Positions 1 through 34,203 of a stretch of DNA of 57,186 nt are shown piece after piece. Position numbers and translations under genes: made by a program. Origin of the DNA: a virus (Duplodnaviria; Caudoviricetes); the IMG/VR virus record IMGVR_UViG_3300044970_001263, positions 1 through 57,186 of that record; one strand, written 5' to 3'. Numbering within the stretch: the stretch's first letter is position 1; each line of letters opens with the position of its first letter. The notes beneath the pieces were generated by a model. That model made no database searches. It had not been told where the DNA came from and saw only the letters and a list, made by a program, of their open reading frames with translations.

Positions 1-82
1 GCGCCCGACGCGCTTATTTGTGCCACCTTGTACCACTTCCTACCACTATATACCCTAAACCCTAACATACCGCCCTGTCTGG

Positions 83-96
83 CGAACATCTGTTCT
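83..96. promoter_or_regulatory. LexA-type (Gram-positive/Chloroflexi) SOS box
   Basis: CGAAC-ATCT-GTTCT, between an A and a B box. Confidence 0.6.
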
Positions 97-241
97 ATTT
101 GGTCTGACCCTAGAACCTAACACGCCTGCGCGGGTCGGGATATTCTGATGGTCGCCCCTTGTAGGGGTGTGTGAGGATATAGGGACAGGGGGAGAGCACG
201 AGTACTCATACCAGACTGACCCTAGAACCTAACACGCCTAC

Positions 242-257
242 TAGAACAGGTGTTCTA
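242..257. promoter_or_regulatory. LexA-type SOS box
   Basis: TAGAAC-AGGT-GTTCTA, between two B boxes. Confidence 0.6.
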
Positions 258-349
258 TTCCTACTGACCCTAGACCCTAACACATCCCCCATAGGGAATA
301 GGCAGAGCGGGGGTAGGAGTCCCCGCCCTGCCTTGTATCTAGTGTATCC

Positions 350-514
350 CTAGTATCCTGCCTCTTTGAGGAAGTCTAGGAACTTTATGGTTGCCGCCGA
401 TTTCGTGTAGAAGTAGTAGACCTGCTTTACATAGTCTCCCTGATCGGAGATATAGGTCAGTACCCACGAGCCGTTGGCATTCTTGTATACGCTGATGTCT
501 CTCTTGTATGCCAT
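350..514 (-). CDS. Small hypothetical protein (54 aa, MAYKRDISVYKNANGSW...)
   Basis: Translated by hand. AGGAGG RBS, A box at 561, GC hairpin at ~300-332 after the stop. Confidence 0.8.
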   Translation of the reverse strand: MAYKRDISVYKNANGSWVLTYISDQGDYVKQVYYFYTKSAATIKFLDFLKEAGY

Positions 515-694
515 ACCTTGTGCCTCCTATCTTGTGGAGAGGATCTCTCTCCTACCATATACCCTAAACCCTAACATACCGCCTGTCAAGCCCTGACCCT
601 AGAACCTAACACATCTAGACAACAGGAGCGAGCAGGGGGCTCTCTTGTCCCCCTGCTCCCTTGCCTGCCCCGCCTTTATACGCGGGGTGTGTTG

Positions 695-991
695 TTAGGC
701 TCGCGCTACGCCTTGCCGTACCACGCTCTGATGGCGGCTGGTTGTGTGGCTGTACTTCTCCGCTGGTACAACCCACTCCCCGCGCTTTGTGTACCACGCG
801 ATCGGTGTGGCGTAAGAGTAGACAACATATGCCAACTCTCCCGCCGTTGCGTCTGCTAGGTACAACTCTGCCGCCCTGCCGTAGATTTGCCCTGTACCGC
901 TTGGGCTGCGGGTTGCCCAGATGCTGTTGCCTCTAAACTCTGCCCGCTGTGCCACCTTACCAATGGCATCGTGCCGTGTAGTGTATCCCAT
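695..991 (-). CDS. Hypothetical phage early protein (98 aa)
   Basis: RBS AGGAGG before MGYTT. The YVVYSYATPIAW...SHTTSRHQ pattern is familiar from small phage proteins. Confidence 0.8.
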   Translation of the reverse strand: MGYTTRHDAIGKVAQRAEFRGNSIWATRSPSGTGQIYGRAAELYLADATAGELAYVVYSYATPIAWYTKRGEWVVPAEKYSHTTSRHQSVVRQGVARA

Positions 992-1187
992 TTGTTGCCT
1001 CCTACTTTGTGGAGAGATTGTCTCTCCTATCATATACCCTAAACCCTAACATACCCGCCAGCCCCGCTATTGTCTGGCTCGTGCGTGATCTACTTAGTCC
1101 ATATATCCTCCTTCTCTTTCTTTCCTACCATATACCCTAGATCCTAACAGAGCAACCTGCCCCTAAACCCTAACACATCCAATAGAT

Positions 1188-1420
1188 AAAAGCAAGAGGA
1201 GCCAACCCCGTCGGGCTGGCTCCTCTTGATCGGGCTGATTCTGGCTCCCCCGTCGGGATAACCCTCCTCGCCGCCCTACGACTCCCAGACTTACAGCGTC
1301 TGCCCTAGTCGCCATCGCGTTGCCGTGCCTCTCTTCATCCCGCAGTTATGGTCGCGGCTGACTGATCGCTCGTCTAACAGCCTCACCATCGGTGGAGAGT
1401 TCCTAGGATCTCTCCTCCTA
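1188..1420 (-). ncRNA. Candidate structured small RNA (promoter box to terminator, no well-initiated ORF)
   Basis: A boxes at 1427 and 1498, several hairpins, strong terminator at 1188-1228. Only a 32-codon ORF without a properly spaced RBS. Confidence 0.45.
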
Positions 1421-1560
1421 ACATATACCCTAGATCCTAACAGACCTAGTGTATCTGCTGGTTGAGAGGGATTCTATCCCCTCTCTTCCTACTATATACC
1501 CTAGATCCTAACAGACCACTATGACCCTAGAACCTAACACATCAAATAAAACAAAATAAA

Positions 1561-1578
1561 ATAGAACAAATGTTCTAT
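1561..1578. promoter_or_regulatory. LexA-type SOS box
   Basis: ATAGAAC-AAAT-GTTCTAT, between B box 1524 and inverted box 1585. Confidence 0.6.
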
Positions 1579-1631
1579 TCGGTGTGTTAGCATCTAGGGT
1601 CGGGGGGAGAGTCGCCCCTCCCCCCTTCCTC

Positions 1632-1904
1632 CTAGAAGTGTGGATCTAGGTAGTCTTGCCCGATCCCGATTGCGAGATAGTGCCCGCCCAGTTCGCCGTG
1701 ATACCCATACTTTTCGTCGTACTTGATCTTGGCTCGGTGAACATTCTGACCACGCTTGATTACCGCGTACTTGACCCCGATACCCCACTTCTTGCTCTTG
1801 CGCCCGTTAGCGTACGGGATCAGTTCCGTGATCTCGTATGCGTATGAGTCTGACCCTACGCACAGGGTGGCAGGCATCCCTACCGCGATCTCCGTTTGTT
1901 TCAT
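1632..1904 (-). CDS. Hypothetical phage protein (90 aa)
   Basis: AGGAGGT RBS, A/B boxes upstream, GC hairpin downstream. Confidence 0.85.
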   Translation of the reverse strand: MKQTEIAVGMPATLCVGSDSYAYEITELIPYANGRKSKKWGIGVKYAVIKRGQNVHRAKIKYDEKYGYHGELGGHYLAIGIGQDYLDPHF

Positions 1905-2007
1905 CTCCTACCTCCTATCTTTCTGAGGGGTGTTTCCCTCACCATATACCCTAAACCCTAACAGACCTATCTGACCCTAGATCCTAACACACCGCTGAAA
2001 TACAAAC

Positions 2008-2021
2008 AGAACAGATGTTCT
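2008..2021. promoter_or_regulatory. LexA-type SOS box
   Basis: AGAAC-AGAT-GTTCT, between B box 1974 and inverted box 2044. Confidence 0.6.
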
Positions 2022-2090
2022 ATATTCAGGGTATTCGTAGGCGTGTTAGATTGTAGGGTCGGGGGGAGGTCGCTCCTCCCCCCTTTCCCC

Positions 2091-2252
2091 CTAGTTCTTT
2101 CGGTTTTCCAGTTCCTTCCAGATGATTTCGCGCATCATATACCAGACCCAGTACTGCTTGTCGTCCTTGTTTTCGTTCAGTACCTTTTCCAGTTCCACCA
2201 GTTCGGCTCGGAGATCCGCCTCCGTTGCCTCAGGGTTGATTCTGAGTCCCAT
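2091..2252 (-). CDS. Small helical hypothetical protein (53 aa)
   Basis: AGGAGG RBS before MGLRINP, A/B boxes upstream. Confidence 0.8.
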   Translation of the reverse strand: MGLRINPEATEADLRAELVELEKVLNENKDDKQYWVWYMMREIIWKELENRKN

Positions 2253-2464
2253 CTTTTTCCTCCTACCTTCTCTCTTGTTTCTCTCTGAGGGAGCGACCCT
2301 CACCATATACCCTGAACCCTAACATAGCAACCTGACCCTAGATCCTAACACACCAAAAAATAGAAATAAACAAATAAATCTAAGAGGTCTGACCCTAGAA
2401 CCTAACACACCTGCCAATAATCGGCAGAGACTGGCAGCCCCTGCCAGCCCCTGCCGATTCTCTC

Positions 2465-2803
2465 CTAGATTGTGATCGTCTCTCCCTTTCGGAGATCGTA
2501 GATCGCCATCTGGCGATTCTCTCGCCCTAGATTCAGCGCGTCTCTCTTGTTGCGGATGATTGTCGTCGGATCCAGATGGATCGTCTCACCATCAACCCAC
2601 GCTCCCAGATGACGCGTCCCGAAGCGATGCCAGATCAGAAACATCGCTTGACGGATTGTCGTCTCCGTCGCCGTGATCGGCAGACGAATCGCCGTCTCGC
2701 TTGTTGCGCCTACGGCGTAGCCTCGCTTTGGCGAGACCGCTACCATCGTGCGGCTCCTGATCGTTGCGCCCCCATTGCTGAGGATTGTCTCTCTGAGTCC
2801 CAT
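2465..2803 (-). CDS. Conserved phage protein, possibly SAM-lyase-like
   Basis: RBS and boxes present. The GGAT...GYAV...LGAW...ALNLGRENRQMAIYDL pattern loosely resembles T3 SAMase-type proteins; the function is inferred. Confidence 0.6.
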   Translation of the reverse strand: MGLRETILSNGGATIRSRTMVAVSPKRGYAVGATSETAIRLPITATETTIRQAMFLIWHRFGTRHLGAWVDGETIHLDPTTIIRNKRDALNLGRENRQMAIYDLRKGETITI

Positions 2804-2947
2804 ATTCTCCTCCTACTATCTCTGAGGGTATCTCCCTCACCATATACCCTGAATCCTAACAGACCTGCCTGACCCTAGAACCTAACACATCGCATAAATG
2901 GAAAAAGGGAGAGGCTGAGGGGTGTCGTCCCCAGCCTCTCCCTTGTA

Positions 2948-3187
2948 TCAGGCGACCTTCTTGGCGAGGAGCCTCGTGGCTCCAAAATCCCACCAGCCGT
3001 CGCCTCGTGCTTGATCGTTCACCAGCAGCCGCCCTGCGATAATGAGAGCCTTGCTCTTGTATTCACCAGCAGCCGCTGCCGTTGCGATTCTGAGCACCTG
3101 CTCTGATGGAGCCTGATTCGTGAGAGCCCTGCCGTGTCGTGCGCTCTTCCCGAACCCAGCCCATCGCTTCATTCCCCAGACCTTCAT
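2948..3187 (-). CDS. Hypothetical basic protein (79 aa)
   Basis: AGGAGG RBS, boxes upstream, terminator at 2902-2944. Confidence 0.8.
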   Translation of the reverse strand: MKVWGMKRWAGFGKSARHGRALTNQAPSEQVLRIATAAAAGEYKSKALIIAGRLLVNDQARGDGWWDFGATRLLAKKVA

Positions 3188-3372
3188 CTTACGCCTCCTA
3201 CCTTGTGGAGTCTCTTGTGAGCCTCCTACCTTATACCCTGAATCCTAACAGAGCGATCTGACCCTAGAACCTAACACACCTCCCAGAACCCAGCCCTGAC
3301 CCTAGAACCTAACACACCGAATAAACAAAAAAAGGCGAGAGGGTACGCTGACCCTCCCGCCTCTTGTTGATC

Positions 3373-3558
3373 TCAGATCTTGCGATAGTGATCCCGAAGG
3401 ATCTCGTCTACCTGATCCGCGATGAAGTAGACCACCACCAGAACCCCTAGACCTGTGAACCCTCCGATAATCCCGCCTGCGATACCTTGTAGCGTGTATC
3501 CTGCTGCTGCTCCTGCTACCAGAGAGCCTACCATCAGGAGCGTATCCTTCGTGCTCAT
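3373..3558 (-). CDS. Gly-rich small membrane protein, paralog of 52510-52707
   Basis: GxxxG-rich hydrophobic segments and a shared TKDTL N-terminus. RBS, boxes and terminator (~3327-3363) present. Confidence 0.85.
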   Translation of the reverse strand: MSTKDTLLMVGSLVAGAAAGYTLQGIAGGIIGGFTGLGVLVVVYFIADQVDEILRDHYRKI

Positions 3559-3664
3559 TTCTTGATCCTCCTACTATCTGGAGCCTCTAAGTGAGCCTCC
3601 TACCCTATACCCTGAACCCTAACAGAGCAGGCTGACCCTAGAACCTAACACACCGAAAAAGAGC

Positions 3665-3708
3665 AAAAAAAAAGAGAGACCAGAGCAGCCCCGCCGCTCT
3701 GGTCTCTC
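3665..3708 (-). terminator. Intrinsic terminator of the sigma-like gene
   Basis: GAGAGACCAGAGC...GCTCTGGTCTCTC stem followed by a T9 run on minus. Confidence 0.85.
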
Positions 3709-3734
3709 TCTGGCTGATCTCTCAGCCTCAGCCG

Positions 3735-4382
3735 TTAGTCTCGGCTGCTGTGAGGATCCTTACCCTCGGTGCGCTTCATTGCGCGGCTGACCGCCATATG
3801 AATCGCTTCCACGCTGAAGATCTCGCCCTGCTCAGCGAGCAGAGCCTGAATCTTTTTCGCGTAGCCATAATGCTTGCCACCTACCTGCTGAAGCAGGCTC
3901 AGCACGCGCTGATCATTCAGCGCGCCGCGCTCAGCGTTAGCGGCTCCCTGAGCCGCCTTATCGGATCCGTGAGCCTGAGCCGCTGCCTGAACGCGAGCCG
4001 CTGAAACCTGCTCAGCGAGCGTACCCTCAGCGATCCAACGCTCAGCCTGAGCGCGCTCAGCCGCGCTCAGCCCTGAGATAAATGAGCCGCGCTCATCAGC
4101 GATAGTCTCGCCGATTGTGAGCCCATCCTCTGAGCCTACTTTCGCGCTGAGATACGCGAAAGAAATCTCCTGCTGAACGCCCCCGAAGGAGCCGCGCTCT
4201 GCTCTAAGAGCCGCACGCGCTGCCTTGATAGCAGCAGCAGGATCCAGAGCGGGATTCTCCACAATCAGGAGAGCCGCCTCTTGGATCAGATCCTCTTGCG
4301 AGGCTGAGCCATTCAGCCCCCCGAAATATGAAGCAGCCTCAGCCTTGAGGCTCTTGTAAATGGAACCGAAATCCTGAGCCAT
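3735..4382 (-). CDS. Divergent sigma-70-like transcription factor
   Basis: EDLIQEAALL resembles region 2.2. S.KVGSEDGLTIGETIAD resembles region 3.2. C-terminal AKKIQALL...SVEAIHMAVSRAMKR resembles the region 4 HTH. Confidence 0.65.
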   Translation of the reverse strand: MAQDFGSIYKSLKAEAASYFGGLNGSASQEDLIQEAALLIVENPALDPAAAIKAARAALRAERGSFGGVQQEISFAYLSAKVGSEDGLTIGETIADERGSFISGLSAAERAQAERWIAEGTLAEQVSAARVQAAAQAHGSDKAAQGAANAERGALNDQRVLSLLQQVGGKHYGYAKKIQALLAEQGEIFSVEAIHMAVSRAMKRTEGKDPHSSRD

Positions 4383-4457
4383 TCTCAGAATCTCCTCTCT
4401 CCCCTATCAGAGCGGCGGGGAGCCGCATCAGAGAGGGGATCCCTCTCCGATAAGAGA

Positions 4458-4468
4458 AGCATACCACA
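4458..4468 (-). promoter_or_regulatory. Host-type extended -10 promoter for the sigma-like gene
   Basis: TGTGG-TATGCT on minus, no phage box upstream, stem-loop at ~4431-4447 just downstream. Confidence 0.55.
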
Positions 4469-4486
4469 AAAGCAGAGAGCGCAACT

Positions 4487-4563
4487 CTGCGAATCCCGCA
4501 ACAGCCCACGAGGGGAGACCTGCGGAATCCGCAAGAATCAGCCAGAATCCTGCGATATCCGCA
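4487..4563. repeat. Three CTGCG-N4-CCGCA quasi-palindromes
   Basis: Copies at 4487-4500, 4520-4533 and 4550-4563, spaced 33 and 30 bp. Confidence 0.75.
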
Positions 4564-4734
4564 GAATGCGCCCCCCCTCCGCTACGCTCCACAGCCAGCG
4601 CGGGGGACCCTATTTAGTACCTAGAGGAAATATACACAGAATCCCAAATATTATATAAGAAGAAACTTATACTGTAACACACCACATGTCTTTGCAAGAC
4701 CGTGCGCAAAGACGCAAAAATAAAAAAACGCCAA

Positions 4735-4946
4735 AGACTAATCTAACCCAGGCTAACCCAGTGGTCTCTCTCTGGAACGCTCTCTGGAACTTCTGTGCTC
4801 CCTCTCTCCCTCAAAAGAAAATACAGAGGGCTCACGCTTAATCTATAAGTTTAACTATTATATGAGACCAAAATAGCCCAAAAAAGCGCGTATAGAGTGA
4901 AGGGTTAAAGTCAGTACAGTAGACTAATCTAACCCAGTAAACCCAG
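4735..4946 (+). repeat. Direct repeat AGACTAATCTAACCCAG with a second AACCCAG unit
   Basis: Copies at 4735-4761 and 4921-4946. CTCTCTGGAAC also occurs twice at ~4768-4790. Confidence 0.75.
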
Positions 4947-4971
4947 CTAGTAGTCTAATGGGAGTAGAGTT

Positions 4972-5442
4972 ATGAGGCATCCAGATTGGTTTTCCACCTT
5001 ACCATTTAGTGTGGTATGTGAGAAGGGCATGACGAAGGACTACCTCAAGCGATACAAGCCAGCTCTGCTTATATTAGCGAGGGCGGTCACAAACGAAAAA
5101 ATTTTGCTGCGCCTGGTCAGGCTGCATTACCACGAAAGCGAGTACTGCCGAGACGCAGGGTTCGCCGAGGACTGGGTGCACAAGATCACGCTATGCTCCG
5201 CCGACATTGATACGGCACTCCACGAGCTAGCCCACGTCGCCACGCACTCCGAGCATTCGAAGCGCTGGGCGAAGTTCCTATTCCGACTGCACAAGAAGTA
5301 CATGTCACCAATCCAGTGCCAGCGCTGGGACTTGCGGGTTGCCCGCGACTACCCCACCGCAGCACGGTACTATAAGCGGCGCTACAAGCGGGAACCAAGC
5401 CCGTTCCGCAAGCGCCAGAAACAAGAGACACCAGATGTCTGA
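4972..5442 (+). CDS. HExxH (SprT/zincin-like) putative metalloprotease
   Basis: ALHELAHVATHSEHSKRW motif; start codon uncertain. Confidence 0.6.
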   Translation: MRHPDWFSTLPFSVVCEKGMTKDYLKRYKPALLILARAVTNEKILLRLVRLHYHESEYCRDAGFAEDWVHKITLCSADIDTALHELAHVATHSEHSKRWAKFLFRLHKKYMSPIQCQRWDLRVARDYPTAARYYKRRYKREPSPFRKRQKQETPDV

Positions 5443-5998
5443 TGAGACAATCGTTTCAAAAACCCAGGGTCAGATCCGTCGTGGTCGACCATCTGGGGCA
5501 CGAAATAAGCCAAAGCTTGATACCCAGCAGCTCAATGAGCTCAAGGACAAGGTTGGCAGGTTCCTCCCGCAGGCAGACTGGAACTACCTCGCAGGCGTGT
5601 TGGAGGGGACGGATAAACCAGTTCTTGAGAAAGATCTGGACATCTTCCTGACCCTTCAGCTCAAAGCCCTCTTGCCACAACTGGCGCAAGAGATTGAGGG
5701 TGGACAGCTGACAAAGGAGGCGACACAGCGCTCGAGCACCATCAAAGAACTTCTCGCTCTGCGATTCCAAATGGAAAAGCACGAGAAGGGCGAAGATACG
5801 CCGAATGCCGTGACGTTTATACAAAATGTCTTTGAATCCCGTGGAATTGATCAAGCCCGTCTCGCAACTCTCTCAGGAGGATTTGGCGGGTCTATTGAAG
5901 GTGTCGCCCGCGCTGTACCTGGAACTGCTCACGCAGACGAAAGGGGAGCCGACGAAACTGGAACCCTACCAGGTGAACTTCCTGAACGATCGGAGTAA
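5435..5998 (+). CDS. Putative terminase small subunit
   Basis: Directly before TerL. GRPSGARNK motif is typical of TerS N-termini. Confidence 0.6.
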   Translation: MSDETIVSKTQGQIRRGRPSGARNKPKLDTQQLNELKDKVGRFLPQADWNYLAGVLEGTDKPVLEKDLDIFLTLQLKALLPQLAQEIEGGQLTKEATQRSSTIKELLALRFQMEKHEKGEDTPNAVTFIQNVFESRGIDQARLATLSGGFGGSIEGVARAVPGTAHADERGADETGTLPGELPERSE

Positions 5999-7247
5999 GT
6001 TCCGCATTGTCGCTAAGTCGCGGCAGATCGGCTTCTCCTATATCATTTCTGGGGAAGGTCTCCACAACATCTCTACCAATGCTGGCAAGAAGGTCAACTA
6101 CGTTTCCATCAATCAGAAGGAAGCGTCGGACAAGATCAGTTACGCCAAGCAATTCTACTATTCAATCCCAGAGCAGTCTGGCTTCAGGGCTCCCGTCTAC
6201 ACGTCGGCAGAGTTCGAGTTCAGTCTGCACAACCACCCTAATACGTCATACATGATCAGCCAGCCCGCCTCTGCTGCGGTCCGTGGCGGCGAGAAAGATG
6301 TCTACTTCGATGAGTTCGCGTTTATTCGTGACGCTCGAAAGCTCTATGACGCTGCTATCCCTGCGACCACGCGAGGCAATGGGCGACTGACCGTTGTATC
6401 TACACCTCTCGGACAAAGCGGTCTCTTTTTTGAGATGGCGAACGATCGGGCTCGCTACCCAGAATACTCAGTGCACATTGTGCCCTGGTGGGAATGCTCC
6501 ATTATGTCCATCGATCCAGCCGAGAGTACGGCGCTTGCGCCAGACTTCGATACCGACCAGCGCGTCAAGCGTTGGGGAACGGATTCGATCAAGTCGATTT
6601 ACAATAACATGGGTCTCGACGCGTTCCAACAGGAGTACGAGTGCTCCTTCGCGGATGAGTCGGTCAACTTTTACCCATGGGGTTTGATTGTTAACTGTGT
6701 AGACGACGAACTTAATCAGCAAAACTATGATCCATCGCTCAGTTACGTTATAGGAATTGACATTGCCAAGAAGATCGACAAGACCGTAGTTACGGTCGCC
6801 ACTGTCGATGACGAGACTGGCAATATCACCATCCACAAGACATTTGAGACACAGGATGACTATAGTAAACAAGTTGAGTTCTTCAACAACCTTATTGCAG
6901 ACATTAAGCCTAACCGAGTTACCATTGACGCTACTGGCGTTGGTGGTGTTATTGCGGAGCAGCTAGTCGCCAAGCACGGCGGTATTGTGGAGGCTGTGAC
7001 CTTCACCAATGCCAACAAGGAACGATGGGCAACCACGTTCAAGGGCGATATGCAGATGGGCAAAGTGCGCTTCCCACGTAAGCGCGAACTTCTCGCTGAG
7101 ATCCACGCGATCGAGCGCAAGAAGACTGAAGCTGGCAACTACCAATTCAAAGCCCGCTCTGATGGGCACGACGACTATTTCTGGTCGGCGATGCTCGCAA
7201 TCTATGGCATGGGTCGCAAGGCTCCTGCCATCAACTTTGCATGGTAG
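5826..7247 (+). CDS. terL: Terminase large subunit
   Basis: KSRQIGFS Walker A, YFDEFAF Walker B, VSTP coupling motif, GIDIA and HDDYFWS nuclease motifs. Confidence 0.95.
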   Translation: MSLNPVELIKPVSQLSQEDLAGLLKVSPALYLELLTQTKGEPTKLEPYQVNFLNDRSKFRIVAKSRQIGFSYIISGEGLHNISTNAGKKVNYVSINQKEASDKISYAKQFYYSIPEQSGFRAPVYTSAEFEFSLHNHPNTSYMISQPASAAVRGGEKDVYFDEFAFIRDARKLYDAAIPATTRGNGRLTVVSTPLGQSGLFFEMANDRARYPEYSVHIVPWWECSIMSIDPAESTALAPDFDTDQRVKRWGTDSIKSIYNNMGLDAFQQEYECSFADESVNFYPWGLIVNCVDDELNQQNYDPSLSYVIGIDIAKKIDKTVVTVATVDDETGNITIHKTFETQDDYSKQVEFFNNLIADIKPNRVTIDATGVGGVIAEQLVAKHGGIVEAVTFTNANKERWATTFKGDMQMGKVRFPRKRELLAEIHAIERKKTEAGNYQFKARSDGHDDYFWSAMLAIYGMGRKAPAINFAW

Positions 7248-7385
7248 ATTTACGTCATGGGGCGCTACTGACCCCAATCAATAGCTACCTCATGACGGGC
7301 TGCTACCGAGCATTGCAAGGATGCAGGGTAACGGTCGAGCGCGTGGCTCCCCCCGTCCATCAACTAATAGAACAGAAGGTGCAGG

Positions 7386-7595
7386 ATGCCGAATTCGGTG
7401 AAGTGCGCGCACTGCGGCTCACTCTTCGGAATCGAAGGTGAAGACGGAGTACTGCGCATCAAGTTCAAAGATCTCTACCGAGAGATTGAAGGTCGTGTCA
7501 GCGGTCCATGTCGCAAGTGCGCCATGACTGTTGTATGGCCCAATGAGGATGTAATCCTTATTGCCAAGAAGATCAAGGAGGAAAGCCGTGGCTAA
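7386..7595 (+). CDS. Com-like zinc-ribbon protein
   Basis: VKCAHCGSLF...PCRKC, two CxxC pairs similar to Mu Com. Confidence 0.55.
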   Translation: MPNSVKCAHCGSLFGIEGEDGVLRIKFKDLYREIEGRVSGPCRKCAMTVVWPNEDVILIAKKIKEESRG

Positions 7596-8856
7596 CATCG
7601 AGCGAATCCCCGTGACCCGTTCCCAGACTCCACCTCGCATTGAGGGAAACCAGAGCCGTGAGACACCATTTAAGTCTCACTCAACCTACACGCGAATGTA
7701 CAAGCAGCACCCTATTGTTCGTGCTGTTATTGACAAGATTTCGCGCACTGCCGTTGCGACTGGTTATCAGTTGTCCCCAGTTGATTCGAAGGACGAATTG
7801 AATGAGTCAAACGCGCAGAAAATTGACCTGACGTTTCGTCGGTCAAAAATTATTTCTTTGCTCCGCCAGACCTACCAAGATCTTTTGATCTACGGTGATG
7901 CATTCTGGTACATTCTCCCAGCGCGTGATGGCGTTCCGTTCCGATTCTATCGGATTGCGCCACAGCAGGTAAACCTTGTTATTGATACTGAGACCCGTGA
8001 AGTCACAAGCTACATCACCCGTGATCCAAAGAATGGACGCGAGACTCAGTACGAGCCAGATGAGTTCCTGCACTTTAAGATCGCCGACCCAGACAACGAC
8101 TTCTACGGGCTAAGCCCGCTTGAGTCGCTTGGCTCAACCGTCGCGCAAGATCTGTTCGCGCAGACTTACAACGAATCATTCTTTGCTAACTCAGCCCAGA
8201 CAGGCATTGTCTTCAACATGAAGAATGCTTCGAAGGAAGAGGTCGAGCGCAACCGTGAGTTCCTGAAGAAGGAATACACTTCGGCTGCAAACGCGCACAA
8301 GCCACTGCTTCTTGAAGGCGATGTGGAAGTCAGCAAGTCCGTTTCCTCACCTGCAGAAATGCAGTTCATCGAGGGTCGACGACAGTTGACGATGGAGATC
8401 CTTGCGGTCTTCGACCTACCGTACACTAAGCTTGGCGGAACCTCAGAGAGCGCAAACCGCTCCCAGAGCGCCGAGAACGACAAGACCTATCGAACGGAGA
8501 CAATCTCTCCTCTGCAAGGTATTGTTGAAGAAGTTATTAATGAGAACTTAATCCTGACAACGTTTGGTATTGATGACGTGATGTTTGAACATCGTGAAGT
8601 CGATACTCGAGACGAAGCGACTCAGATGAAGTTGTACATTGATGCACTAACCCATGGAATTTACGACTTGAACTACATTCGTAATCAGCTAGGATTGGCT
8701 GCAATTCCGAACGGGAGCGAGCCGTTTATTCAAACCTCGACTGGTATCTTGCCAGTATCTCAGCTCCTTGGCGGAGCTCCGCAGCCAAATACGCCAGCTC
8801 CAGCAGAACCTGTTGGAGAAACGACTGACGATGTAGCGGAGGAAACTGATGTCTGA
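7588..8856 (+). CDS. Portal protein (HK97-like)
   Basis: AAGGAGG RBS plus GTG start. LLIYGDAFW, YGLSPLE and FFANSA..G motifs. Confidence 0.93.
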   Translation: MANIERIPVTRSQTPPRIEGNQSRETPFKSHSTYTRMYKQHPIVRAVIDKISRTAVATGYQLSPVDSKDELNESNAQKIDLTFRRSKIISLLRQTYQDLLIYGDAFWYILPARDGVPFRFYRIAPQQVNLVIDTETREVTSYITRDPKNGRETQYEPDEFLHFKIADPDNDFYGLSPLESLGSTVAQDLFAQTYNESFFANSAQTGIVFNMKNASKEEVERNREFLKKEYTSAANAHKPLLLEGDVEVSKSVSSPAEMQFIEGRRQLTMEILAVFDLPYTKLGGTSESANRSQSAENDKTYRTETISPLQGIVEEVINENLILTTFGIDDVMFEHREVDTRDEATQMKLYIDALTHGIYDLNYIRNQLGLAAIPNGSEPFIQTSTGILPVSQLLGGAPQPNTPAPAEPVGETTDDVAEETDV

Positions 8857-10672
8857 GATCGAACGAGCAGAGTCATACAGTCCTCCAGAGGGCGTTCGGG
8901 CAGCTGCAAAGCGTGCACTGAAGTGGATCGAAGAAGGCAAAGCTGGAAGCGGCTTTACTGACGTAGGTCGAAAACGCGCAGCAGATCTTGCTCGTGGAGC
9001 AGAGATCTCTGTTGCAACACTTGGACGAATGAAATCGTTCTTCGCTCGACACGAAGTTGACAAGAAAGCTACAGGCTTTAGTTCAGGAGAAGAGGGATAC
9101 CCCTCTCCTGGTCGAGTTGCTTGGGACGCTTGGGGCGGAGACGCTGGTCAGTCGTGGGCTAATAGCATCGTTAAAGACGAAAGGTCCCAAGACGATGAGG
9201 AAGAGCGTGCAATGGCAGGAGAAGTAAAAGAAGGCGATTTTGTCAGTTGGTATTCACCATCTGGTCTCGCTAGTGGTCGGGTAGAACATGTAATGCTTGA
9301 CGGCATTTATGGTCTTCCAGACTCAAACTTTGCACTCCCAGCAAGTCCAGAAAACCCAGCACTGGCAATTAGGATTTATCAGCCAGCTGGTGAGGGATGG
9401 ATTGAAACTGAAATGAGCATCGGCAAGAAAATGTCTGATGTTACAAAGATCAATCCTCTTACGAGCATGCGCTCTGAGGAGCTAATAATGACAACTAACA
9501 ACTGGAAGATCACTATCCCAGTCGATCGTGCCGAAGAGCAGGATGGCGGACTGTTCCTCTATGGACAGGCATCAGGTCCCGAGCGAGATTCTCATGGGAC
9601 TGAGATGGACCCCACTGCGATTCAGGACTTCGCGGATCAGATTGTATCTCGCACAAACGATGGTGATCCACTACCTTACCTAGACCATCACATGAAAGAT
9701 GGTGTCCTCCGCGAACTTGGAGAAGTTGTGGATGGCTCTGTTTCTAGCGACTATAGGTTGAACATCAAAGTTCGCCTACACCCAGATAACCCTGCAGCGG
9801 CGTATTTGCATAGCCGAATTAAGCAGGGTAAAAAGTATGGGATGTCGATCGCTGGAGATGGTGTCCAGTACCGCATGATTGATGACCCCTCCTCTGGAGA
9901 AAAGGTTATCCGATTCCTCAAGATTAAGTTGAAGGAAATTAGTAACACGACGCGCCCCTCGTGGGTACCGTCGTTCGGCACTGTGCTCGCTCGCTCCATC
10001 GAGGGCGAGGAGATTGGAGAAAATATGGCAGAAGAGCTCGTTAAGAGCGACGCAACCGAAGTGGTTGAGAACGTCGCCGCAAATGAGTCTGCGGAACCCG
10101 TTGCCGCTCAGGTGACCGAGCAGACCGAAGCCCCCGTTGTTGAAGCACCCGTTGCTGAGGCTGCACCTGCAGCTGAAGTAGCTCCCGTCGTGGAGGCTGC
10201 GCCTGTAGAGGCTGCTGCTCCCGCTGAGGAGAACGGTGAAGTCGTCGAGCGTGCACGCATCGCCAAGCGCGATGCTGAGAAGCTCGTCGAAGCATTCAAC
10301 GCGCTTAAGGGGCAACTCGAGACGCTCGGGGTATTTGAGCCCGACGCACCGCAGGCTGCAGCGGAAGCACCAGTCGCTAAGACTGAAGATGCTCCTGCAG
10401 ATGAGAACGTGGACTTTAATGGGGTTTCGGTTCGCCGCGACCTCGCTGAGGCTATTACCGCCTTTGTCGCCTCTAAGGTTGACGAGAGCACGGCAGTCCT
10501 CCGCGAGACAGTCGAGAAGCAGGCTGAATACATCAAGAAGCTCGAAGAGCTTCCTGCTGGCAAGTTGCCTGCTGCCGTTGTCCGCGAAAAGTTTGAGACT
10601 GGACTTCCAGACCTCGGCTCAATGAGCAATGAGGATAAGTTGAAGTACGCTCTCGGTAATATCTACAAGTAA
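8849..10672 (+). CDS. Multidomain prohead protease/scaffold protein
   Basis: N-terminal RMKSFFARHE...VAWDAWGGDAG domain and a Tudor-like VKEGDFVSW module. Protease core (RDSHG, DHH, GMSIAG, EISNTTRPS). Ala/Glu/Pro-rich scaffold tail. Confidence 0.85.
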   Translation: MSEIERAESYSPPEGVRAAAKRALKWIEEGKAGSGFTDVGRKRAADLARGAEISVATLGRMKSFFARHEVDKKATGFSSGEEGYPSPGRVAWDAWGGDAGQSWANSIVKDERSQDDEEERAMAGEVKEGDFVSWYSPSGLASGRVEHVMLDGIYGLPDSNFALPASPENPALAIRIYQPAGEGWIETEMSIGKKMSDVTKINPLTSMRSEELIMTTNNWKITIPVDRAEEQDGGLFLYGQASGPERDSHGTEMDPTAIQDFADQIVSRTNDGDPLPYLDHHMKDGVLRELGEVVDGSVSSDYRLNIKVRLHPDNPAAAYLHSRIKQGKKYGMSIAGDGVQYRMIDDPSSGEKVIRFLKIKLKEISNTTRPSWVPSFGTVLARSIEGEEIGENMAEELVKSDATEVVENVAANESAEPVAAQVTEQTEAPVVEAPVAEAAPAAEVAPVVEAAPVEAAAPAEENGEVVERARIAKRDAEKLVEAFNALKGQLETLGVFEPDAPQAAAEAPVAKTEDAPADENVDFNGVSVRRDLAEAITAFVASKVDESTAVLRETVEKQAEYIKKLEELPAGKLPAAVVREKFETGLPDLGSMSNEDKLKYALGNIYK

Positions 10673-10693
10673 TAATAATTAAGGAGACTTTCA

Positions 10694-11569
10694 ATGGCTG
10701 ACATTGAGCGAGCTCTTAGCACGTCCGTCGCATCTACTGGTGCATACCTCCTCCCAGAGGTAGTCGATCCAGTAATCCGCGATTACGTTTCTAAGGCTAC
10801 ACCTGTTCTTAGCGTTGTAACGCGTGTGAACTGGCCTACACAGACCTATTACATCCGCAAGCGAAGCGGGCTTCCTACGGCTGCATTCAGCACCGATGGT
10901 GGTTCACTTCCAAGCGCTTCAAGCTCGACCTACGCTAAGGTCGCAAAGACCGTCAAGTACCTGTACACCCGTGGTGAGGTCACTGGTCCGCTTATCGCGG
11001 CTGCTGGTGGCGTTGTCAACGCGCTGCAGGAAGAGATTCGCGTCCACTCGGGCGTGATTGCTGAGCGACTCGCCACGGCGATCTGCGTCGGCGACGGCAC
11101 CGAAGATACCAACGCTGGTATCATCGGCATCAAGCATCAGATCAACACTTCGACCCCTGGCAATGAGGGTGGTACGACGGACGCTTCGGCTGCCGCTCTC
11201 ACCCTTGCCATGTTGGACAAGGCTCTTGACGACACGAAGGGCGAGGCTGACGTTATCATGACGAGCCGCGCAGTTCGCCGCAAGATCAGTGCCCTTCTTC
11301 AGGGTCAGCAGCGCTTCCTCGACCGAGTTGAGGTTGGCGCTGGCTTCCGCGTTCTTTCGTATGACGGCGTGCCGATCGTTACGGACGACCACTACGAGGA
11401 GAACGAGATTCTCGTCTTCCGACGTGCTGACGCGAAGCTTATCGTGAACCAGGACTTCACGATGGAGATGCTTGCTAAGACCAAGGACGCTGAAGACTTC
11501 TACATCAAGGGGTACTTCGGCTTCGCTCTTGAGGGTCGCCCTGTGCGCCTCAAGAACTTCACGATCTAA
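10694..11569 (+). CDS. Major capsid protein (HK97 fold)
   Basis: GAYLLPE N-arm, ICVGDG...IIGI, YDGVPIV. Strong RBS, follows the scaffold. Confidence 0.92.
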   Translation: MADIERALSTSVASTGAYLLPEVVDPVIRDYVSKATPVLSVVTRVNWPTQTYYIRKRSGLPTAAFSTDGGSLPSASSSTYAKVAKTVKYLYTRGEVTGPLIAAAGGVVNALQEEIRVHSGVIAERLATAICVGDGTEDTNAGIIGIKHQINTSTPGNEGGTTDASAAALTLAMLDKALDDTKGEADVIMTSRAVRRKISALLQGQQRFLDRVEVGAGFRVLSYDGVPIVTDDHYEENEILVFRRADAKLIVNQDFTMEMLAKTKDAEDFYIKGYFGFALEGRPVRLKNFTI

Positions 11570-11594
11570 TTTTTTAGCGTGAACTAGGTGCTGC

Positions 11595-11622
11595 TAGGGG
11601 GGTGGAGAAATCCATCCCCCTA
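11595..11622 (+). terminator. Stem-loop after the capsid gene
   Basis: TAGGGGGGTGGA-GAAA-TCCATCCCCCTA with no U tract. Confidence 0.55.
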
Positions 11623-11645
11623 CCACACCACACAGAAGGAGGCAC

Positions 11646-11885
11646 ATGATGCCAAAGGCTAAGAAAGCCAACATGGAATTCATTACAGCTGATCTCGACA
11701 AGAGTGAAACTCAGGACCGAGAAGGTTTTGTGAAGATGCTTGCCCCAGTAAACTGGGAAAGGGTCAACTGTCTAGAAACGTTCTATGACGGCGAAGTTGA
11801 AGTTGTAGATGGGGTCGCCTACGTTCCAGCCGAGAACTACCACTGGGTAGATCGGATGCGAATGAATGGGTATGAAGTAGCATGA
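11646..11885 (+). CDS. Hypothetical protein
   Basis: AAGGAGG RBS, coupled to the next gene by ATGA. Confidence 0.8.
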   Translation: MMPKAKKANMEFITADLDKSETQDREGFVKMLAPVNWERVNCLETFYDGEVEVVDGVAYVPAENYHWVDRMRMNGYEVA

Positions 11886-13057
11886 AGATCCTCATGCTCG
11901 GTGATTCACCGTTCCTTAAAACTGGTTTCGGAATCGTCAACTCGGTTGCTGTAGAGCATCTGAAGTCTAGCGGTCACCAGCTGGTGGTCATTGGAGGTCA
12001 GGATACGCAGAAGCGTGATCTTGGCAAGGGTCATCACTACTACCCAATCGAGTCGATGCAGAAAGATGCAATTGGCTGGAAGAACGTGTCAATCACGCTA
12101 AAGAAGCACAAGATTGATGCGGTGCACATTATTGCCGATCCAGCGACCGTAGTCATGTGGCTACTTCGCCGAGATCTGATCAAGCTCCCTATTACGGTAT
12201 ATATGCCGATTGAGGGTGCCCCGATGAACTATAACTGGGTTCAGGTTCTGCATCAGACACCGAACCTAAAGATCATTACGTGCTCACAGTATGGCGTTGA
12301 TGAGCTCAAGCGAAACGGACTTGAGTCGACAATGGCGTACCATGGAGTGTCTGATGACTTCTACCAGTATGAGCCAGAACACCGACGGTTCCTTCGGGAG
12401 TCCGTTGGATGGGATGACAAGTTCGTTGTCATGAATGTGGCTCAGAACGTTGAGCGTAAGCAGTGGCCTCGGCTATTCGAGGCAATCAAGATTGTAGCTT
12501 ACAAGCACCCGCAAGTGGTGCTCTACGCGCACACCGTGCCGTTTGATAACTACCATCTTGGTGGACATGATCTCCCTCAGCTTGCTCACCAACTGGACAT
12601 TGTAGAGAACGTGCTTTTTTCAGGAAAGCATGCGAAACACAATGACTCAGTTGCTTTAACTTCTCAAAACTATCCTGGTCTTGTTGACCTTTACAACATG
12701 GCTGACTGCTTTGTTTTACCTTCGCAGGTAGAAGGATTCGGTCTTCCACTGGTTGAGGCAATGGCTTGCGGTCTTCCAGTCGCTCACACAAACTACGGCG
12801 CAGGCGCTGAAGTTGTGGGAGATGCTGGGACGTTGATTCAGCCACACGACTGGATAGTCAATAAGAGTCATAGTCGATATGCAAATCTCAGCCCAGAGTC
12901 AATCGCGGCAGAGATTGAGAAGATGTTCCTTAGCCCGTCTCTGCGAGAGCAGATGCGTGAGAAGGGGCTGAGCCGTGCAAAGCAGTTCTCATGGGACGGC
13001 TATCGCACAGCACTATGGAGGGCATTCAATGGCGAAAGCCCGACCATTCACAAATAA
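11882..13057 (+). CDS. GT-B family 4 glycosyltransferase
   Basis: YNMADCFVLPSQVEGFGLPLVEAMACGLPV signature. Confidence 0.93.
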   Translation: MKILMLGDSPFLKTGFGIVNSVAVEHLKSSGHQLVVIGGQDTQKRDLGKGHHYYPIESMQKDAIGWKNVSITLKKHKIDAVHIIADPATVVMWLLRRDLIKLPITVYMPIEGAPMNYNWVQVLHQTPNLKIITCSQYGVDELKRNGLESTMAYHGVSDDFYQYEPEHRRFLRESVGWDDKFVVMNVAQNVERKQWPRLFEAIKIVAYKHPQVVLYAHTVPFDNYHLGGHDLPQLAHQLDIVENVLFSGKHAKHNDSVALTSQNYPGLVDLYNMADCFVLPSQVEGFGLPLVEAMACGLPVAHTNYGAGAEVVGDAGTLIQPHDWIVNKSHSRYANLSPESIAAEIEKMFLSPSLREQMREKGLSRAKQFSWDGYRTALWRAFNGESPTIHK

Positions 13058-13232
13058 AGTTAATACTAAGTCGCTTATCCGTAAATTTAAGGTTAATAAA
13101 CGAGCAGATCTTTCCCTTCGCGGAAGGTTGCGCTTCAGGCGGCGTAGGCTGCGCCTGATTGTTCGGGCACGCCTTGCCGCAGTGAAGTTGATTCCAACTG
13201 CATTCCGAAATAAGAAGAAACGATCAGTTTAA
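13029..13232 (+). CDS. Very basic Arg/Lys-rich small protein
   Basis: GGAGG RBS before MAKARPF; fills the gap before the connector gene. Confidence 0.65.
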   Translation: MAKARPFTNKVNTKSLIRKFKVNKRADLSLRGRLRFRRRRLRLIVRARLAAVKLIPTAFRNKKKRSV

Positions 13233-13241
13233 GGAGGCGCA

Positions 13242-13808
13242 ATGGCGCGGAAGTATATCACTGCTACGGAGTTTAAGGATAAGCCCCTGGGCATTGCTCT
13301 GCGCCAGTACTCCAGCGATCAGCTGGATTCTCTTATTGAGATTGCGACCGAACAGGTTGAGAGCTATTGCGAACGCGTCTTTGAGCAGGCTACCTACACA
13401 GAGACCTTCGTTGGCGATGGCTCTTCAACCTACTTGACGCTTCAGTACCCGTTGACCTCAGTGACTTCAATCTCTGAAACAACAATTGCGACTACCCCAG
13501 TTACAACGACAATTACCCCGAGCACGCTGGTTCGGACAACGGAGACAGATAAGTTTGGCAAGCTCCTTCTTGGACCTGCCAGCGAAACAACGCTGTTCTC
13601 GCCGAGTTCCAAGTATACCATCGTCTATACCGCTGGATACGCCACGCTACCACCAGCTATCAAGCACGCTACTGCGCTGTTCGTCAGCGAGCTAGTAAAG
13701 CCTGACTACGGCGGAGCGCAGGACAGCACACCAGAGATTATTCCGATGACCAGCCAACAGATTGCTGACTTGCTCAGCATCTACCGTCGCCGAAGGATCG
13801 GTGTCTAA
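13242..13808 (+). CDS. Head-tail connector (gp6-like)
   Basis: ATEQVESYCER and YTAGYATLPPAIKHA motifs. Confidence 0.85.
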   Translation: MARKYITATEFKDKPLGIALRQYSSDQLDSLIEIATEQVESYCERVFEQATYTETFVGDGSSTYLTLQYPLTSVTSISETTIATTPVTTTITPSTLVRTTETDKFGKLLLGPASETTLFSPSSKYTIVYTAGYATLPPAIKHATALFVSELVKPDYGGAQDSTPEIIPMTSQQIADLLSIYRRRRIGV

Positions 13809-28416: not shown

Positions 28417-29577
28417 ATGCCTAAGTTTACTGCGTCACTAAATCTCCCCAAGTACGCCGCTGCTCCATCTACTCCTGTTGACGGAGACGTTTACTACAAC
28501 ACGGCTGACCACAAGGTCTATTCTCGCATCAATGGTGCGTGGGTAGACCTTGGGGCAACCTCTTCACCAGGTGCTGGAATCCCAGAGACCATTATCGACG
28601 CTAAGGGCGACCTTATTGTCGGGTCTGCTGCCGATACAGCGGTACGACTTGCTGTTGGCTCAGACGGTCAAATCGTTTCTGCTAATAGCGCTGTTGCTGG
28701 CGGAGTCGAGTGGATTGACAACGTTGCCGATGAAACTCGCCTTCTTGTTAAGAACCAGACTGGCTCCACTCTTACTAAGGGTCAAGTTGTTTACATCAAC
28801 GGTGCAAGCGGCAATCTCCCAACGGTTACGCTTTCTCAGGCTAATTCAGAGACGACATCTTCCAAGACAGTCGGTGTTGTTCGGCAAACAATCGTCAATA
28901 ATGAAAGCGGATATGTAACGCTTTCTGGGCTACTAAAAAACGTTGATACGCAAGGTTTTACTGCTGGTCAAGCGGTCTGGCTGTCTGCTGCTACGGCTGG
29001 TGCATTTACTGCAACACGACCACCTGCGCCAGACCACGCCGTACTAATCGGCTATGTCCCAAAGGTTTCTGCTAATGGCGAGATCTTTGTAATGATTCAG
29101 AATGGTTTTGAACTACAAGAACTTCATAATGTCTCTATTACTGGCGCTGCTAGCGGAGACTACCTTAGGTATAACGGAACACTTTGGACGCATGACGATC
29201 AGGTTGTCACTCTTACAGGGACACAAACACTCAGCGGTAAAACTATCGATACTCCAATTATTACTGGAAGCGGAATCGATATCCCAGACAACACTGCTTA
29301 TAAAATTAACGCTGTAGAAGTCCTGAATGAAACCACACTCGGAAGCGCAGTTGTAAACTCCTCTCTTACCAGCGTTGGCACAATCGGCATTGGTACATGG
29401 AACGGAACGGCGATTGCAATCCAGCACGGTGGAACGGGTCACGACACAGCGGCAGAGGCAATCAATGCCCTGCTCCCAGTTCAAACAAGCCATACTGGTA
29501 AGTTTCTTACCACAAACGGGACTGACCCATCATGGGTTGATCTCAATAATATTACGCTTGATGGCGGAGGAGCCTAA
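28417..29577 (+). CDS. Tail fibre-associated protein
   Basis: DAKGDLIVG, TGTQTLSGKT, SSLTSVGTI, GKFLTTNGT motifs. Confidence 0.8.
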   Translation: MPKFTASLNLPKYAAAPSTPVDGDVYYNTADHKVYSRINGAWVDLGATSSPGAGIPETIIDAKGDLIVGSAADTAVRLAVGSDGQIVSANSAVAGGVEWIDNVADETRLLVKNQTGSTLTKGQVVYINGASGNLPTVTLSQANSETTSSKTVGVVRQTIVNNESGYVTLSGLLKNVDTQGFTAGQAVWLSAATAGAFTATRPPAPDHAVLIGYVPKVSANGEIFVMIQNGFELQELHNVSITGAASGDYLRYNGTLWTHDDQVVTLTGTQTLSGKTIDTPIITGSGIDIPDNTAYKINAVEVLNETTLGSAVVNSSLTSVGTIGIGTWNGTAIAIQHGGTGHDTAAEAINALLPVQTSHTGKFLTTNGTDPSWVDLNNITLDGGGA

Positions 29578-34182: not shown

Positions 34183-34203
34183 CCATACCCTGAGGAGGTG
34201 CGT

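Follow-up and report, generated by a model that had tools for sequence, protein, structure and literature searches.

A repeated 16-nt box and a 215-residue protein as a candidate phage-specific transcription system in a siphovirus-like phage

We analyzed the whole of IMG/VR virus record IMGVR_UViG_3300044970_001263, a stretch of 57,186 nucleotides (nt) hereafter called the window, in which a 16-nt box, TGTTAGG-N4-AGGGT, recurs in front of small genes. The window is the complete record of a siphovirus-like phage, with an exact 127-base-pair (bp) direct terminal repeat at its ends (bases 1-127 are copied at 57060-57186) and a unique genome of 57,059 bp. The boxes form two classes and are confined to one arm of the genome and one strand, and their upstream half has been replaced, together with a 215-amino-acid (aa) protein encoded at 3735-4382 (minus strand), in sister phages that are otherwise closely related. 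Our best explanation, to which we give a probability of about one half, is that the boxes are phage-private transcription signals and that the 215-aa protein is a phage-made factor that reads them and redirects host RNA polymerase.

Two classes of box in a cassette-like early arm

When up to two mismatches are allowed, TGTTAGG-N4-AGGGT matches the window 50 times, against 3.45 ± 1.84 matches expected (at most 9 in 100 shuffles). A slightly relaxed regular expression finds 40 copies on the minus strand and one on the plus strand; two of these 40 are duplicates because the ends of the window are an exact repeat, which carries one box of each class. The unique genome has 36 exact boxes, every one on the minus strand, and the exact and one-mismatch copies together make 38 sites, all within 52-3650 and 50612-57020. 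Between 3651 and 50611 there is no exact copy, and the seven two-mismatch matches found there are at chance level. A sequence-only reading of the same DNA had counted about 40 boxes and had noticed none in the structural or replication regions, which agrees with these searches. The extent that it gave, 45-4470, does contain boxes but is too narrow, since the finding spans both ends of the record (1-3650 and 50612-57020).

The sequence that follows the box defines the two classes. Among the 36 exact copies, 23 continue as A-TAnnnT (type A, the number given before), 12 as CAG or CAT (type B), and one as ATCCTG. Type A boxes are preceded by A or C and followed by A and then TAnnnT in 23/23 cases. 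Type B boxes, which number 14 when two one-mismatch copies (1160-1175 and 50975-50990) are included, are followed by CAG or CAT with no TAnnnT hexamer, and all 12 exact copies are preceded by G; a TTCT core is present in 9 of these 12 but in only 2 of the 23 type A boxes. For eight type B boxes, counting from start to start, another box follows exactly 26 bp downstream (a type A box in seven cases and, for the one at 50975, the odd copy at 50949), the remaining spacings being 35, 38, 48, 55, 57, and 112 bp. Reverse-oriented copies occur at 1585 and 2044, and several are also found in the related locus L044 described below.

On the minus strand, the left part of the early arm (45-3650) contains 11 type A boxes (starting at 52, 561, 1036, 1134, 1427, 1498, 1948, 2309, 2846, 3235, and 3609) and 13 type B boxes (107, 219, 267, 596, 1160, 1524, 1974, 2335, 2392, 2872, 3261, 3299, and 3635). 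The right part (50612-57020) contains 12 type A boxes (50612, 50911, 52753, 53826, 54399, 55063, 55424, 55710, 56022, 56494, 56713, and 57005), one type B box (50975), and the odd copy (50949). As described before, the boxes mostly precede a ribosome-binding site (RBS) and a small gene: 18 of the 23 type A boxes have a Shine-Dalgarno sequence and an open reading frame (ORF) of at least 30 aa within 70 nt. Those at 52, 1498, and 50911 have another box or a long leader next instead of an ORF, and after the one at 1134-1149 come a good RBS and a two-codon mini-ORF (ATG GAC TAA), down to ~1100, before the next box unit. The last box (50612-50627) would drive a CobS/CobT-like gene pair (50558-47414).

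No type A box qualifies when scored as a sigma-70 -35/-10 promoter, and none has a -35 element at sigma-70 spacing (16-18 bp), which is in line with the near absence of such elements noted earlier. The type A box ends 1 nt from the TAnnnT hexamer, with the TGTTAGG heptamer 10 nt away, and it is therefore not itself a -35 element at that spacing. A reference for what the host sigma reads is the promoter TTGACA-17-TATACT at 40374-40346 (minus strand) in the replication/lysis region; both of its hexamers are kept in the relative G001, with three spacer bases changed.

The boxes are embedded in cassettes. In the left arm, the repeating unit consists of an intrinsic terminator, a T-rich tract, a type B box, a type A box, a 5′ hairpin, an RBS, and a small ORF, and there are 12 terminator-like sites in 1-5200 against 3.3 expected. 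The first type B/type A pair comes after a strong intrinsic terminator (3711-3671, minus strand; 19-bp stem and T-run) that closes the unit of the 215-aa protein gene. In the right arm, genes stand close together over 53826-57020, where each gap from a stop codon to the next RBS holds a single type A box. Because the left-arm genes each lie between a terminator and a B/A pair, initiation must restart there, and the boxes are the only conserved candidates for re-initiation past the terminators. The type B boxes, the terminators, and the 5′ hairpins are additions to the sequence-only reading, which had not separated them.

A hairpin of -8 kcal/mol or stronger is present in 12 of the 23 type A leaders (275 of 1,544 control windows on the same strand; shuffles, mean 0.9 and maximum 3 of 23), and in 10 of these 12 it begins 0-2 nt past the last T of the hexamer. 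In relatives, the homologous units also have the hairpin, with a stem that differs in sequence. In seven units the start codon lies 13-16 nt past the hexamer, and the Shine-Dalgarno sequence therefore begins within a few nt of it. We also observed a palindrome, TAGAACA-NN-TGTTCTA, in four copies with zero to two mismatches (82-97, 242-257, 1562-1577, and 2007-2022; the first is copied at 57141-57156), always beside type B boxes of the left early arm, with seven matches at up to three mismatches against 1.9 expected. It also occurs in the second lineage described below (L044, near 12000). Its form, GAAC-N4-GTTC, is that of a LexA-box type of Gram-positive bacteria, and a second regulator may use it as an operator.

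The gene for the 215-aa protein, called as an ORF at 3735-4382 (minus strand), has no box upstream, in agreement with the earlier description of it as the only early-arm unit without one. The extended -10 element attributed to it fares less well. In the proximal host-type element TGgTATGCT (4466-4458, minus strand; hexamer at 4463-4458, then a hairpin at 4448-4431), TAnnnT is kept in 6/6 aligned relatives with variable middle bases, but the TG is present in only 2/6. A distal sigma-70-type promoter, GTTACA-17-TATAAT, lies at 4678-4650 (minus strand), and its TATAAT (4655-4650) lies at the start of a 42-nt block (4657-4616) without a single change among the six aligned relatives from both lineages. 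This block, which reads TATATAATATTT..GATTCTGT.TATATTTCCTCTAGGTACT, is far more conserved than its flanks, and its pattern was found as eight stretches in six viral records, the one new record ending at the gene. In the divergent region between this gene and the packaging genes, CTGGGTTAGATTAGTCT is present in two exact copies (4735-4751 and 4921-4937, minus strand; 0.13 expected). Related words recur in relatives L043 and L046, and CTGGGTTAGATTAGTCT could be a packaging, origin, or regulator site.

Sister phages differ in both the protein and the upstream half of the box

Relatives of the 215-aa protein are encoded at six viral loci. In G005 (L041) and the first part of G001 (L042), which together with the window form lineage 1, the protein is 77-83% identical, the same TGTTAGG boxes are present (10 and 36 forward copies, respectively), and the layout just downstream of the gene is the same. 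In the second part of G001 (L044) and in G003 (L045), which form lineage 2, the protein is 40-42% identical and there are 0 TGTTAGG boxes; two further members of the 40-42% group, G002 and G004, end at the gene. Lineage 2 has its own two classes of box. Type A′, TGTGAAATGATnTCGGCTAGAGGGTAGG, is followed by a hairpin, an RBS, and an ORF and is present in L044 as 14 full and 3 shortened copies. Type B′, ATATGTGAAATGAT..TGGC.C (that is, TGTGAAATGAT..TGGC), is promoter-less and lies behind terminators, in nine copies. The upstream box half in this lineage is TGTGAAATGAT-N-TCGGC. Alignment of the units by their 3′ ends shows TA-nAnnnT-AGGAG in both lineages (TA-TATGGT in one, TA-GAGGGT in the other), and the upstream 15-17 nt are completely different. 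In the shared module, the A and T are invariant in 23/23 units of lineage 1 and 14/14 of lineage 2, with variable middle bases, and the lineage-2 hexamer is GAGnnT in 14/14.

The genomes that carry these two sets are otherwise close. Lineages 1 and 2 are 90% identical at the nucleotide level over window 4563-13780, a similarity that ends ~180 nt before the ATG of the 215-aa protein, and sister-phage genes elsewhere are about 75-97% identical. Protein identities between the lineages are 93% for the large terminase subunit (TerL), 97% for the portal, 98% for the major capsid protein, 95% for the CobS-like protein, and 84% for the ORF in the small-terminase position. The 215-aa protein, at 41.7%, shows the lowest identity of all shared ORFs of more than 100 aa, compared to 77% within the lineage that has the same box. 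Since the protein and the box half both differ on otherwise close genomes, they have been replaced together on a conserved chassis. Co-variation of box and protein in related phages, which the sequence-only reading had set as a check, is thus observed, the 42%-identical protein going with a different upstream half. That close sister phages use a different upstream half argues that the boxes are a phage-specific signal and not a host one.

Other registers that could be read into the lineage-1 box, a sigma-54-like -24/-12 arrangement and its own TAGGGT as a -10, were dropped as lineage 2 fits neither. The lineage-1 box also reads as two telomere-like repeats (G-TTAGGG-TTTAGGG-T), and box plus hexamer as three TAnnnT-like heptads with a 7-nt period; the lineage-2 box is without such an internal repeat. 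A further search for relatives with the first family alignment, A1, added one lineage-2 locus in metagenomes (L050). We found no relative of the protein in one genome each of 185,579 species and no third lineage, homologues P0019 and P0020 giving no viral locus and P0017 only lineage-2 records.

The record that carries both box sets, G001 (IMGVR_UViG_3300027608_000021; loci L042, L044, and L047-L049), is 83 kb long, or ~1.45 genome lengths. Its bases 1-28001 match the window from 44408 through the ends to 13896 and have the TGTTAGG set, and its bases 48193-83149 match the window from 35344 through the ends to 13780 and have the TGTGAAATGAT set. Either two co-occurring phages were joined into a chimeric assembly or the record is a mixed concatemer. 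Comparison of L042 (11123-13593) with L044 (10467-12675) shows homologous early cassettes in a different order, with several small ORFs present in one lineage only. By analogy, such reordering would be expected if the repeated boxes mediate shuffling, as in the promoter-early stem-loop (PeSL) cassettes of T4-like phages, which PMC4122927 describes as composite terminator/promoter motifs repeated around small variable ORFs.

The 215-aa protein and the readings it allows

The 215-aa protein belongs to a family without named members. We found 16 homologues among 5.8 billion clusters, and a profile search returned nine proteins at E ≤ 0.001 among 1.84 billion representatives, none of them named, while tblastn against 50,697 phage records gave no match at E ≤ 0.1. 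One candidate, P0022 (1481 aa, seven matched stretches), was treated as a low-complexity match and carries Ig/cadherin-type domains. In homologues P0010-P0014, from short ENA/Logan contigs, the putative recognition helix differs. Two AlphaFold models (pLDDT 68 and 73) agree on an all-helical layout, with an N-terminal three-helix domain (residues 1-60), a variable and poorly predicted middle, a C-terminal domain resembling a helix-turn-helix (HTH; residues ~145-206), and a disordered tail. The tail ends in an HSSRD motif that is invariant in both family alignments (A1 and A2). In members down to 25% identity, this predicted-disordered motif, there HS(S/A)RD (residues 207-215), is kept along with AHG...ARGAAN..G..ND (residues 137-157). 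Such conservation suggests that the tail may be a docking peptide for a partner.

Several comparisons hint at a sigma factor. Among 17 family members, Pfam Sigma70_r2 (PF04542) matches two below threshold (best E 0.093), and Sigma70_r4_2 matches one, P0015 (E 0.0015, 18.6 bits against a cut-off of 25.7). The sub-threshold Foldseek rows from the PDB are mostly sigma chains. In the VIA structure comparison, the top rows for residues 1-75 of both models are sigma-2 domains of extracytoplasmic function (ECF) sigmas (rmsd 2.9-3.8, 64-69 residues aligned), namely SigH (5zx2_F, Z 5.5, rmsd 2.9, 64 aligned), RpoE (5uxx_C, Z 5.4), and ShbA (Z 5.0). Sigma-70, sigma-28, SigR, SigC, SigE, and T4 gp55 follow at Z of about 4.2-4.7 (4.4-4.6 for gp55, 7d7d_F). 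The C-terminal domain resembles the HTH domains of ISWI SANT/SLIDE, Fis, DosR, Fur, and the sigma-4 domain of SigL (Z 4.2-4.5). Language-model (Atlas) neighbors include phage clusters with Sigma70_r2 (52% of members) or Sigma70_r4 (10%). Finally, a predicted complex of residues 1-80 with residues 250-330 of Escherichia coli beta′, a stand-in for the host clamp helices, scored 0.49, the best of three controls scoring 0.00 (runs agreeing in at least 72% of contacts, partner pLDDT at least 66), and was graded weak support. In calibration, 58 of 80 solved complexes reached the mark, as did 2 of 110 mismatched pairs, and only 7 of the 80 but both mismatches did so at scores of 0.60 or less. By this calibration, a pass this weak is wrong more often than not unless the guess was already a likely one, and the prediction may stem from a likeness to solved sigma/beta′ complexes instead of actual binding. 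These hints all point one way, each weakly, and we put the odds that the protein is a true, very divergent member of the sigma family at about even.

Under our preferred explanation, the system would work as follows. The host RNA polymerase with its primary sigma would first transcribe the box-free gene of the factor from TATAAT 4655-4650 and TAnnnT 4463-4458. The protein would then join the host polymerase, most likely as a very divergent, ECF-like subunit of the sigma-70 family with its N-terminal domain on the beta′ clamp helices; it could, with less likelihood, be a MotA-style adaptor beside the host sigma. Initiation would be directed to the 23 type A sites, with the predicted C-terminal HTH reading the lineage-specific half (TGTTAGG-N4-AGGG in lineage 1) and the shared TA-nAnnnT module, whose invariant A and T and variable middle resemble a -10 element, serving for melting. 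Type B boxes would be extra sites with the recognition half and no melting module, which could load or hold the factor beside the promoter after terminators. Since type A boxes have no -35 and lineage 2 has only GAGnnT (GAGGGT), they should be weak for the primary sigma alone. The proposal of the sequence-only reading, in which host polymerase makes a phage factor that switches on the boxes, remains the simplest; the roles suggested for the shared 3′ module and for the type B boxes are added to it here. It gains from the phage-specific signal, the most diverged protein, the box-free gene of that protein with host-type -10 elements upstream, and the lack of a recognizable phage RNA polymerase, but the sigma identity finds no such backing.

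Several results weigh against this explanation. The label "sigma-70-like" given to the protein before is not established: it matches no Pfam or PHROGs family at E ≤ 0.01, and in six-frame searches of the phage neither PF04542 (whose control was positive in 11 of 14 genomes) nor PF08281 matched anything at E ≤ 10. A profile search of the PDB gave a best E of 0.89 and no sigma. When the second family alignment, A2, was compared by hhalign to an RpoE profile, which is narrow (12 sequences, each at least 86% identical to the E. coli RpoE query), the probability was 2% over 18 columns, only the region-2.1 motif (EDLIQEA/DVVQEAF) being aligned. Foldseek returned nothing at E ≤ 0.001 from the PDB or BFVD, and every VIA Z is below 8, the tool's own noise bar. 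The geometry is also unusual for a sigma. The recognition half directly adjoins the hexamer, at about -29 to -14, and the stretch read by sigma-4 from its place on the beta flap is -35 to -30. Type B boxes without a melting module, the fixed G at -1, the TTCT core, and the reverse copies fit a free DNA-binding protein better than a sigma. A canonical start ~7 nt past the hexamer would cut the hairpin arm or the Shine-Dalgarno sequence and, in the seven short units, would fall inside or after the latter. Either the start is unusually close, or hairpin and Shine-Dalgarno function in read-through transcripts, or a polymerase other than the host's is at work. These misfits sustain three competing readings, namely a Cro-like or stoperator-like repressor, a MotA-like adaptor, and an unrecognized polymerase. 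The co-variation rests on one switch between two lineages, and other early proteins have diverged as well (53184-53615, 48.6%; 55082-55387, 52.6%; 53846-54175, 57.8%). As alternative factors these three were rejected, having no DNA-binding or informative family and all lying behind boxes themselves. A bolder version, in which an unrecognizably divergent family of polymerase specificity factors reads a ~23-nt promoter with its specific element set against the melting element and transcription starting at or inside TAnnnT, appears to us improbable. We know of no such geometry for a bacterial multisubunit polymerase.

The strongest competitor, though we consider it rather unlikely, is that the protein is a repressor and the boxes its asymmetric operators, in a Cro-like or stoperator-like shut-off of the early arm by the product of its first gene. 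Type A boxes would then be -10 promoters read by the host, with an operator over the spacer, and type B boxes extra operators or roadblocks behind terminators. The model for such a system is the repressor of Cluster A mycobacteriophages, a monomeric two-domain DNA-binding protein with operators and stoperators (PMC9283540). That repressor is similar in having ~180-215 aa and >20 asymmetric sites, oriented with transcription, in promoters and between genes (PMC9283540), just as we have a ~200-aa, two-domain, helical HTH protein and >30 asymmetric sites that all follow the direction of transcription and occur both at promoters and between genes. Joint change of a DNA-binding protein and its sites would be equally expected, and a box at -29 to -14 is typical of operators. 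The factor gene's proximal promoter likewise consists only of TAnnnT with no clear -35, and -10-only promoters may therefore work in this host. However, we found no tyrosine or serine integrase or resolvase in the phage (search controls were positive), and the absence of any relative from one genome each of 185,579 species makes an immunity repressor unlikely. Unlike genome-wide stoperators, the sites are confined to one arm and are absent from 3651-50611. Box and hexamer keep one exact register in 23/23 units (14/14 in lineage 2), which an operator does not need, and GAGGGT in lineage 2 would be very weak unaided although the phage owns a canonical TTGACA/TATACT promoter elsewhere. Neither a fold nor a sequence match to the Cluster A repressor, including the L5-type repressor structure, is among the matches listed, which does not exclude such a protein. 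The lack of an integrase, the one-arm sites, the exact register, and the poor hexamer of lineage 2 speak against a pure repressor, though not against an early shut-off protein. If the protein is a repressor, the boxes would form a stoperator-like network in an apparently lytic phage. To our knowledge, this would be the first outside temperate actinophages.

Much less probable is that the ~23-nt unit of box plus TATA..GT is the promoter of an unrecognized RNA polymerase, phage-encoded or virion-borne, to which the 215-aa protein is a cofactor or unrelated. Transcription would start inside or just past TAnnnT, which suits the hairpins that begin 0-2 nt past the hexamer in most of the 12 hairpin leaders, and the position of the Shine-Dalgarno sequence in the seven short units fits a start at the 3′ edge of the unit. 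The promoters of single-subunit phage polymerases are similarly built, with a binding half, an initiation half, and a close start. We recognized no phage RNA polymerase in family scans of the ORFs, though, and those of at least 300 aa are structural, replication, or CobS/T-like except for three without matches (34198-35364, 388 aa; 28417-29577; 31659-32855). A six-frame search with PF00940 gave nothing in a test where the control genomes were silent too, leaving it without a positive control. An invariant A, an invariant T, and a variable middle are, moreover, the signature of a sigma-70-family -10.

We give little credence to the box being a host-only signal, that is, an optimal promoter or UP-like context for the host sigma multiplied by cassette duplication, with the 215-aa protein uninvolved. 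In phages, conservation of early promoters can extend well past the host consensus, as in T4 (PMC2988021), TAnnnT is present in 23/23 copies, and the terminator/promoter cassettes resemble PeSLs. Against this, the upstream half is an unrelated one in sister phages found in lake metagenomes, one 83-kb record carries both box sets, and the boxes have no -35 while the promoter at 40374-40346 has a perfect one. As in PeSLs, repeated terminator/promoter/stem-loop units lie by small variable ORFs, and cassette order differs between the lineages. Unlike in PeSLs, the boxes here are lineage-specific and without a -35; PeSL promoters are host sigma-70 early promoters. We hold it equally improbable that the box acts in mRNA as a processing or translational-control site read by an RNA-binding phage protein: box copies lie on the coding strand, those in 53826-57020 each between a stop codon and the next RBS, and structured leaders follow many, but a few copies are on the other strand, the B/A pairs come right after strong intrinsic terminators that should let little RNA through from upstream, and the -10-like conservation has no obvious meaning in RNA.

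Among positive regulators, MotA/AsiA of phage T4 is a close parallel to the factor that we propose. MotA is active as a monomer, and T4 has nearly 60 middle promoters, in which the MotA box and the -10 are 12 ± 1 bp apart (PMC2988021). In both phages, an early two-domain protein of ~210 aa would act on dozens of promoters made of a host-like -10 and a phage box that replaces the -35. The differences are that the 16-nt box here abuts the hexamer with a 1-nt gap, TGTTAGG being 10 nt away, and that the predicted C-terminal domain is all-helical, unlike the beta-rich "double wing" of MotA. MotA has no row in the fold lists for the 215-aa protein, which does not exclude a relationship, and the small early proteins scanned matched no family, no search having been aimed at an AsiA-like partner. 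We know of no T4 counterpart of the promoter-less type B copies.

Phage-encoded sigmas offer another parallel. In 7-11 and phiEco32, as PMC4331800 describes, a sigma of the phage is produced first, by the host polymerase, and goes on to recognize well-conserved promoters specific to the phage. SPO1 gp28, T4 gp55, and the phiEco32/7-11 sigmas share this logic, in which the host polymerase makes a factor that reads phage promoters, with the system proposed here, and T4 gp55 is among the weak fold matches. Unlike the 215-aa protein, they are recognizable by sequence. The copy number is far higher here, with 23 promoters and 14 extra boxes in ~11 kb, and the controlled class is an "early" arm of small genes rather than middle or late genes.

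Set against the literature on stoperators, phage sigma factors, PeSLs, and MotA, both the retargeting of host polymerase by a phage and the terminator/promoter/stem-loop cassettes are of kinds already known. What is new is a candidate factor family that is unrecognizable by sequence, a compact putative promoter whose parts abut, a second, promoter-less class of box, and a natural pair of alternative factor/box sets on one chassis. If our explanation is right, these phages represent a natural specificity swap, in which one small protein and the upstream part of ~35 boxes make up most of the difference between two close relatives, and promoter recognition would be directly testable across the two protein/box sets. 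A new protein family would also join the few routes by which phages retarget host RNA polymerase. The TGTTAGG-type and TGTGAAATGAT-type sets, each with ~20 promoters and promoter-less docking sites, would be ready-made orthogonal promoter/factor pairs, and the tight packing of box, hexamer, hairpin, and RBS raises the question of where bacterial polymerase starts.

The rest of the genome

The structural genes lie on the plus strand, with TerL at 5826-7247, the portal at 7561-8856, the major head protein at 10694-11569, the tape measure at 16834-21318, and tail fibers up to ~33 kb. Also on the plus strand are an exonuclease (40439-41431), DnaB (41428-42783), and, after DnaB, a dNMP kinase and a phosphoesterase. 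The minus strand carries a methyltransferase, the CobS/CobT-like AAA+/VWA pair (49566-50558 and 47414-49624), and ~30 small ORFs. No tRNA was found in the window.

Window 1-8000 had no blastn match among the 50,697 phage records, and the best TerL match among them was only 31.5% identical (Brevibacillus phage Emery); therefore, no cultured relative or host can be named. According to habitat labels, DNA of this phage occurs in lake-water metagenomes. For window 1-4700, the 24 sample rows are DNA metagenomes from lake water or other sources with no RNA sample listed, two wastewater rows (0.07 share) being guessed as RNA. A glycosyltransferase gene (11882-13057) lies within the head module, and a gene for a pyrimidine-dimer DNA glycosylase (52774-53196) lies among the early genes.

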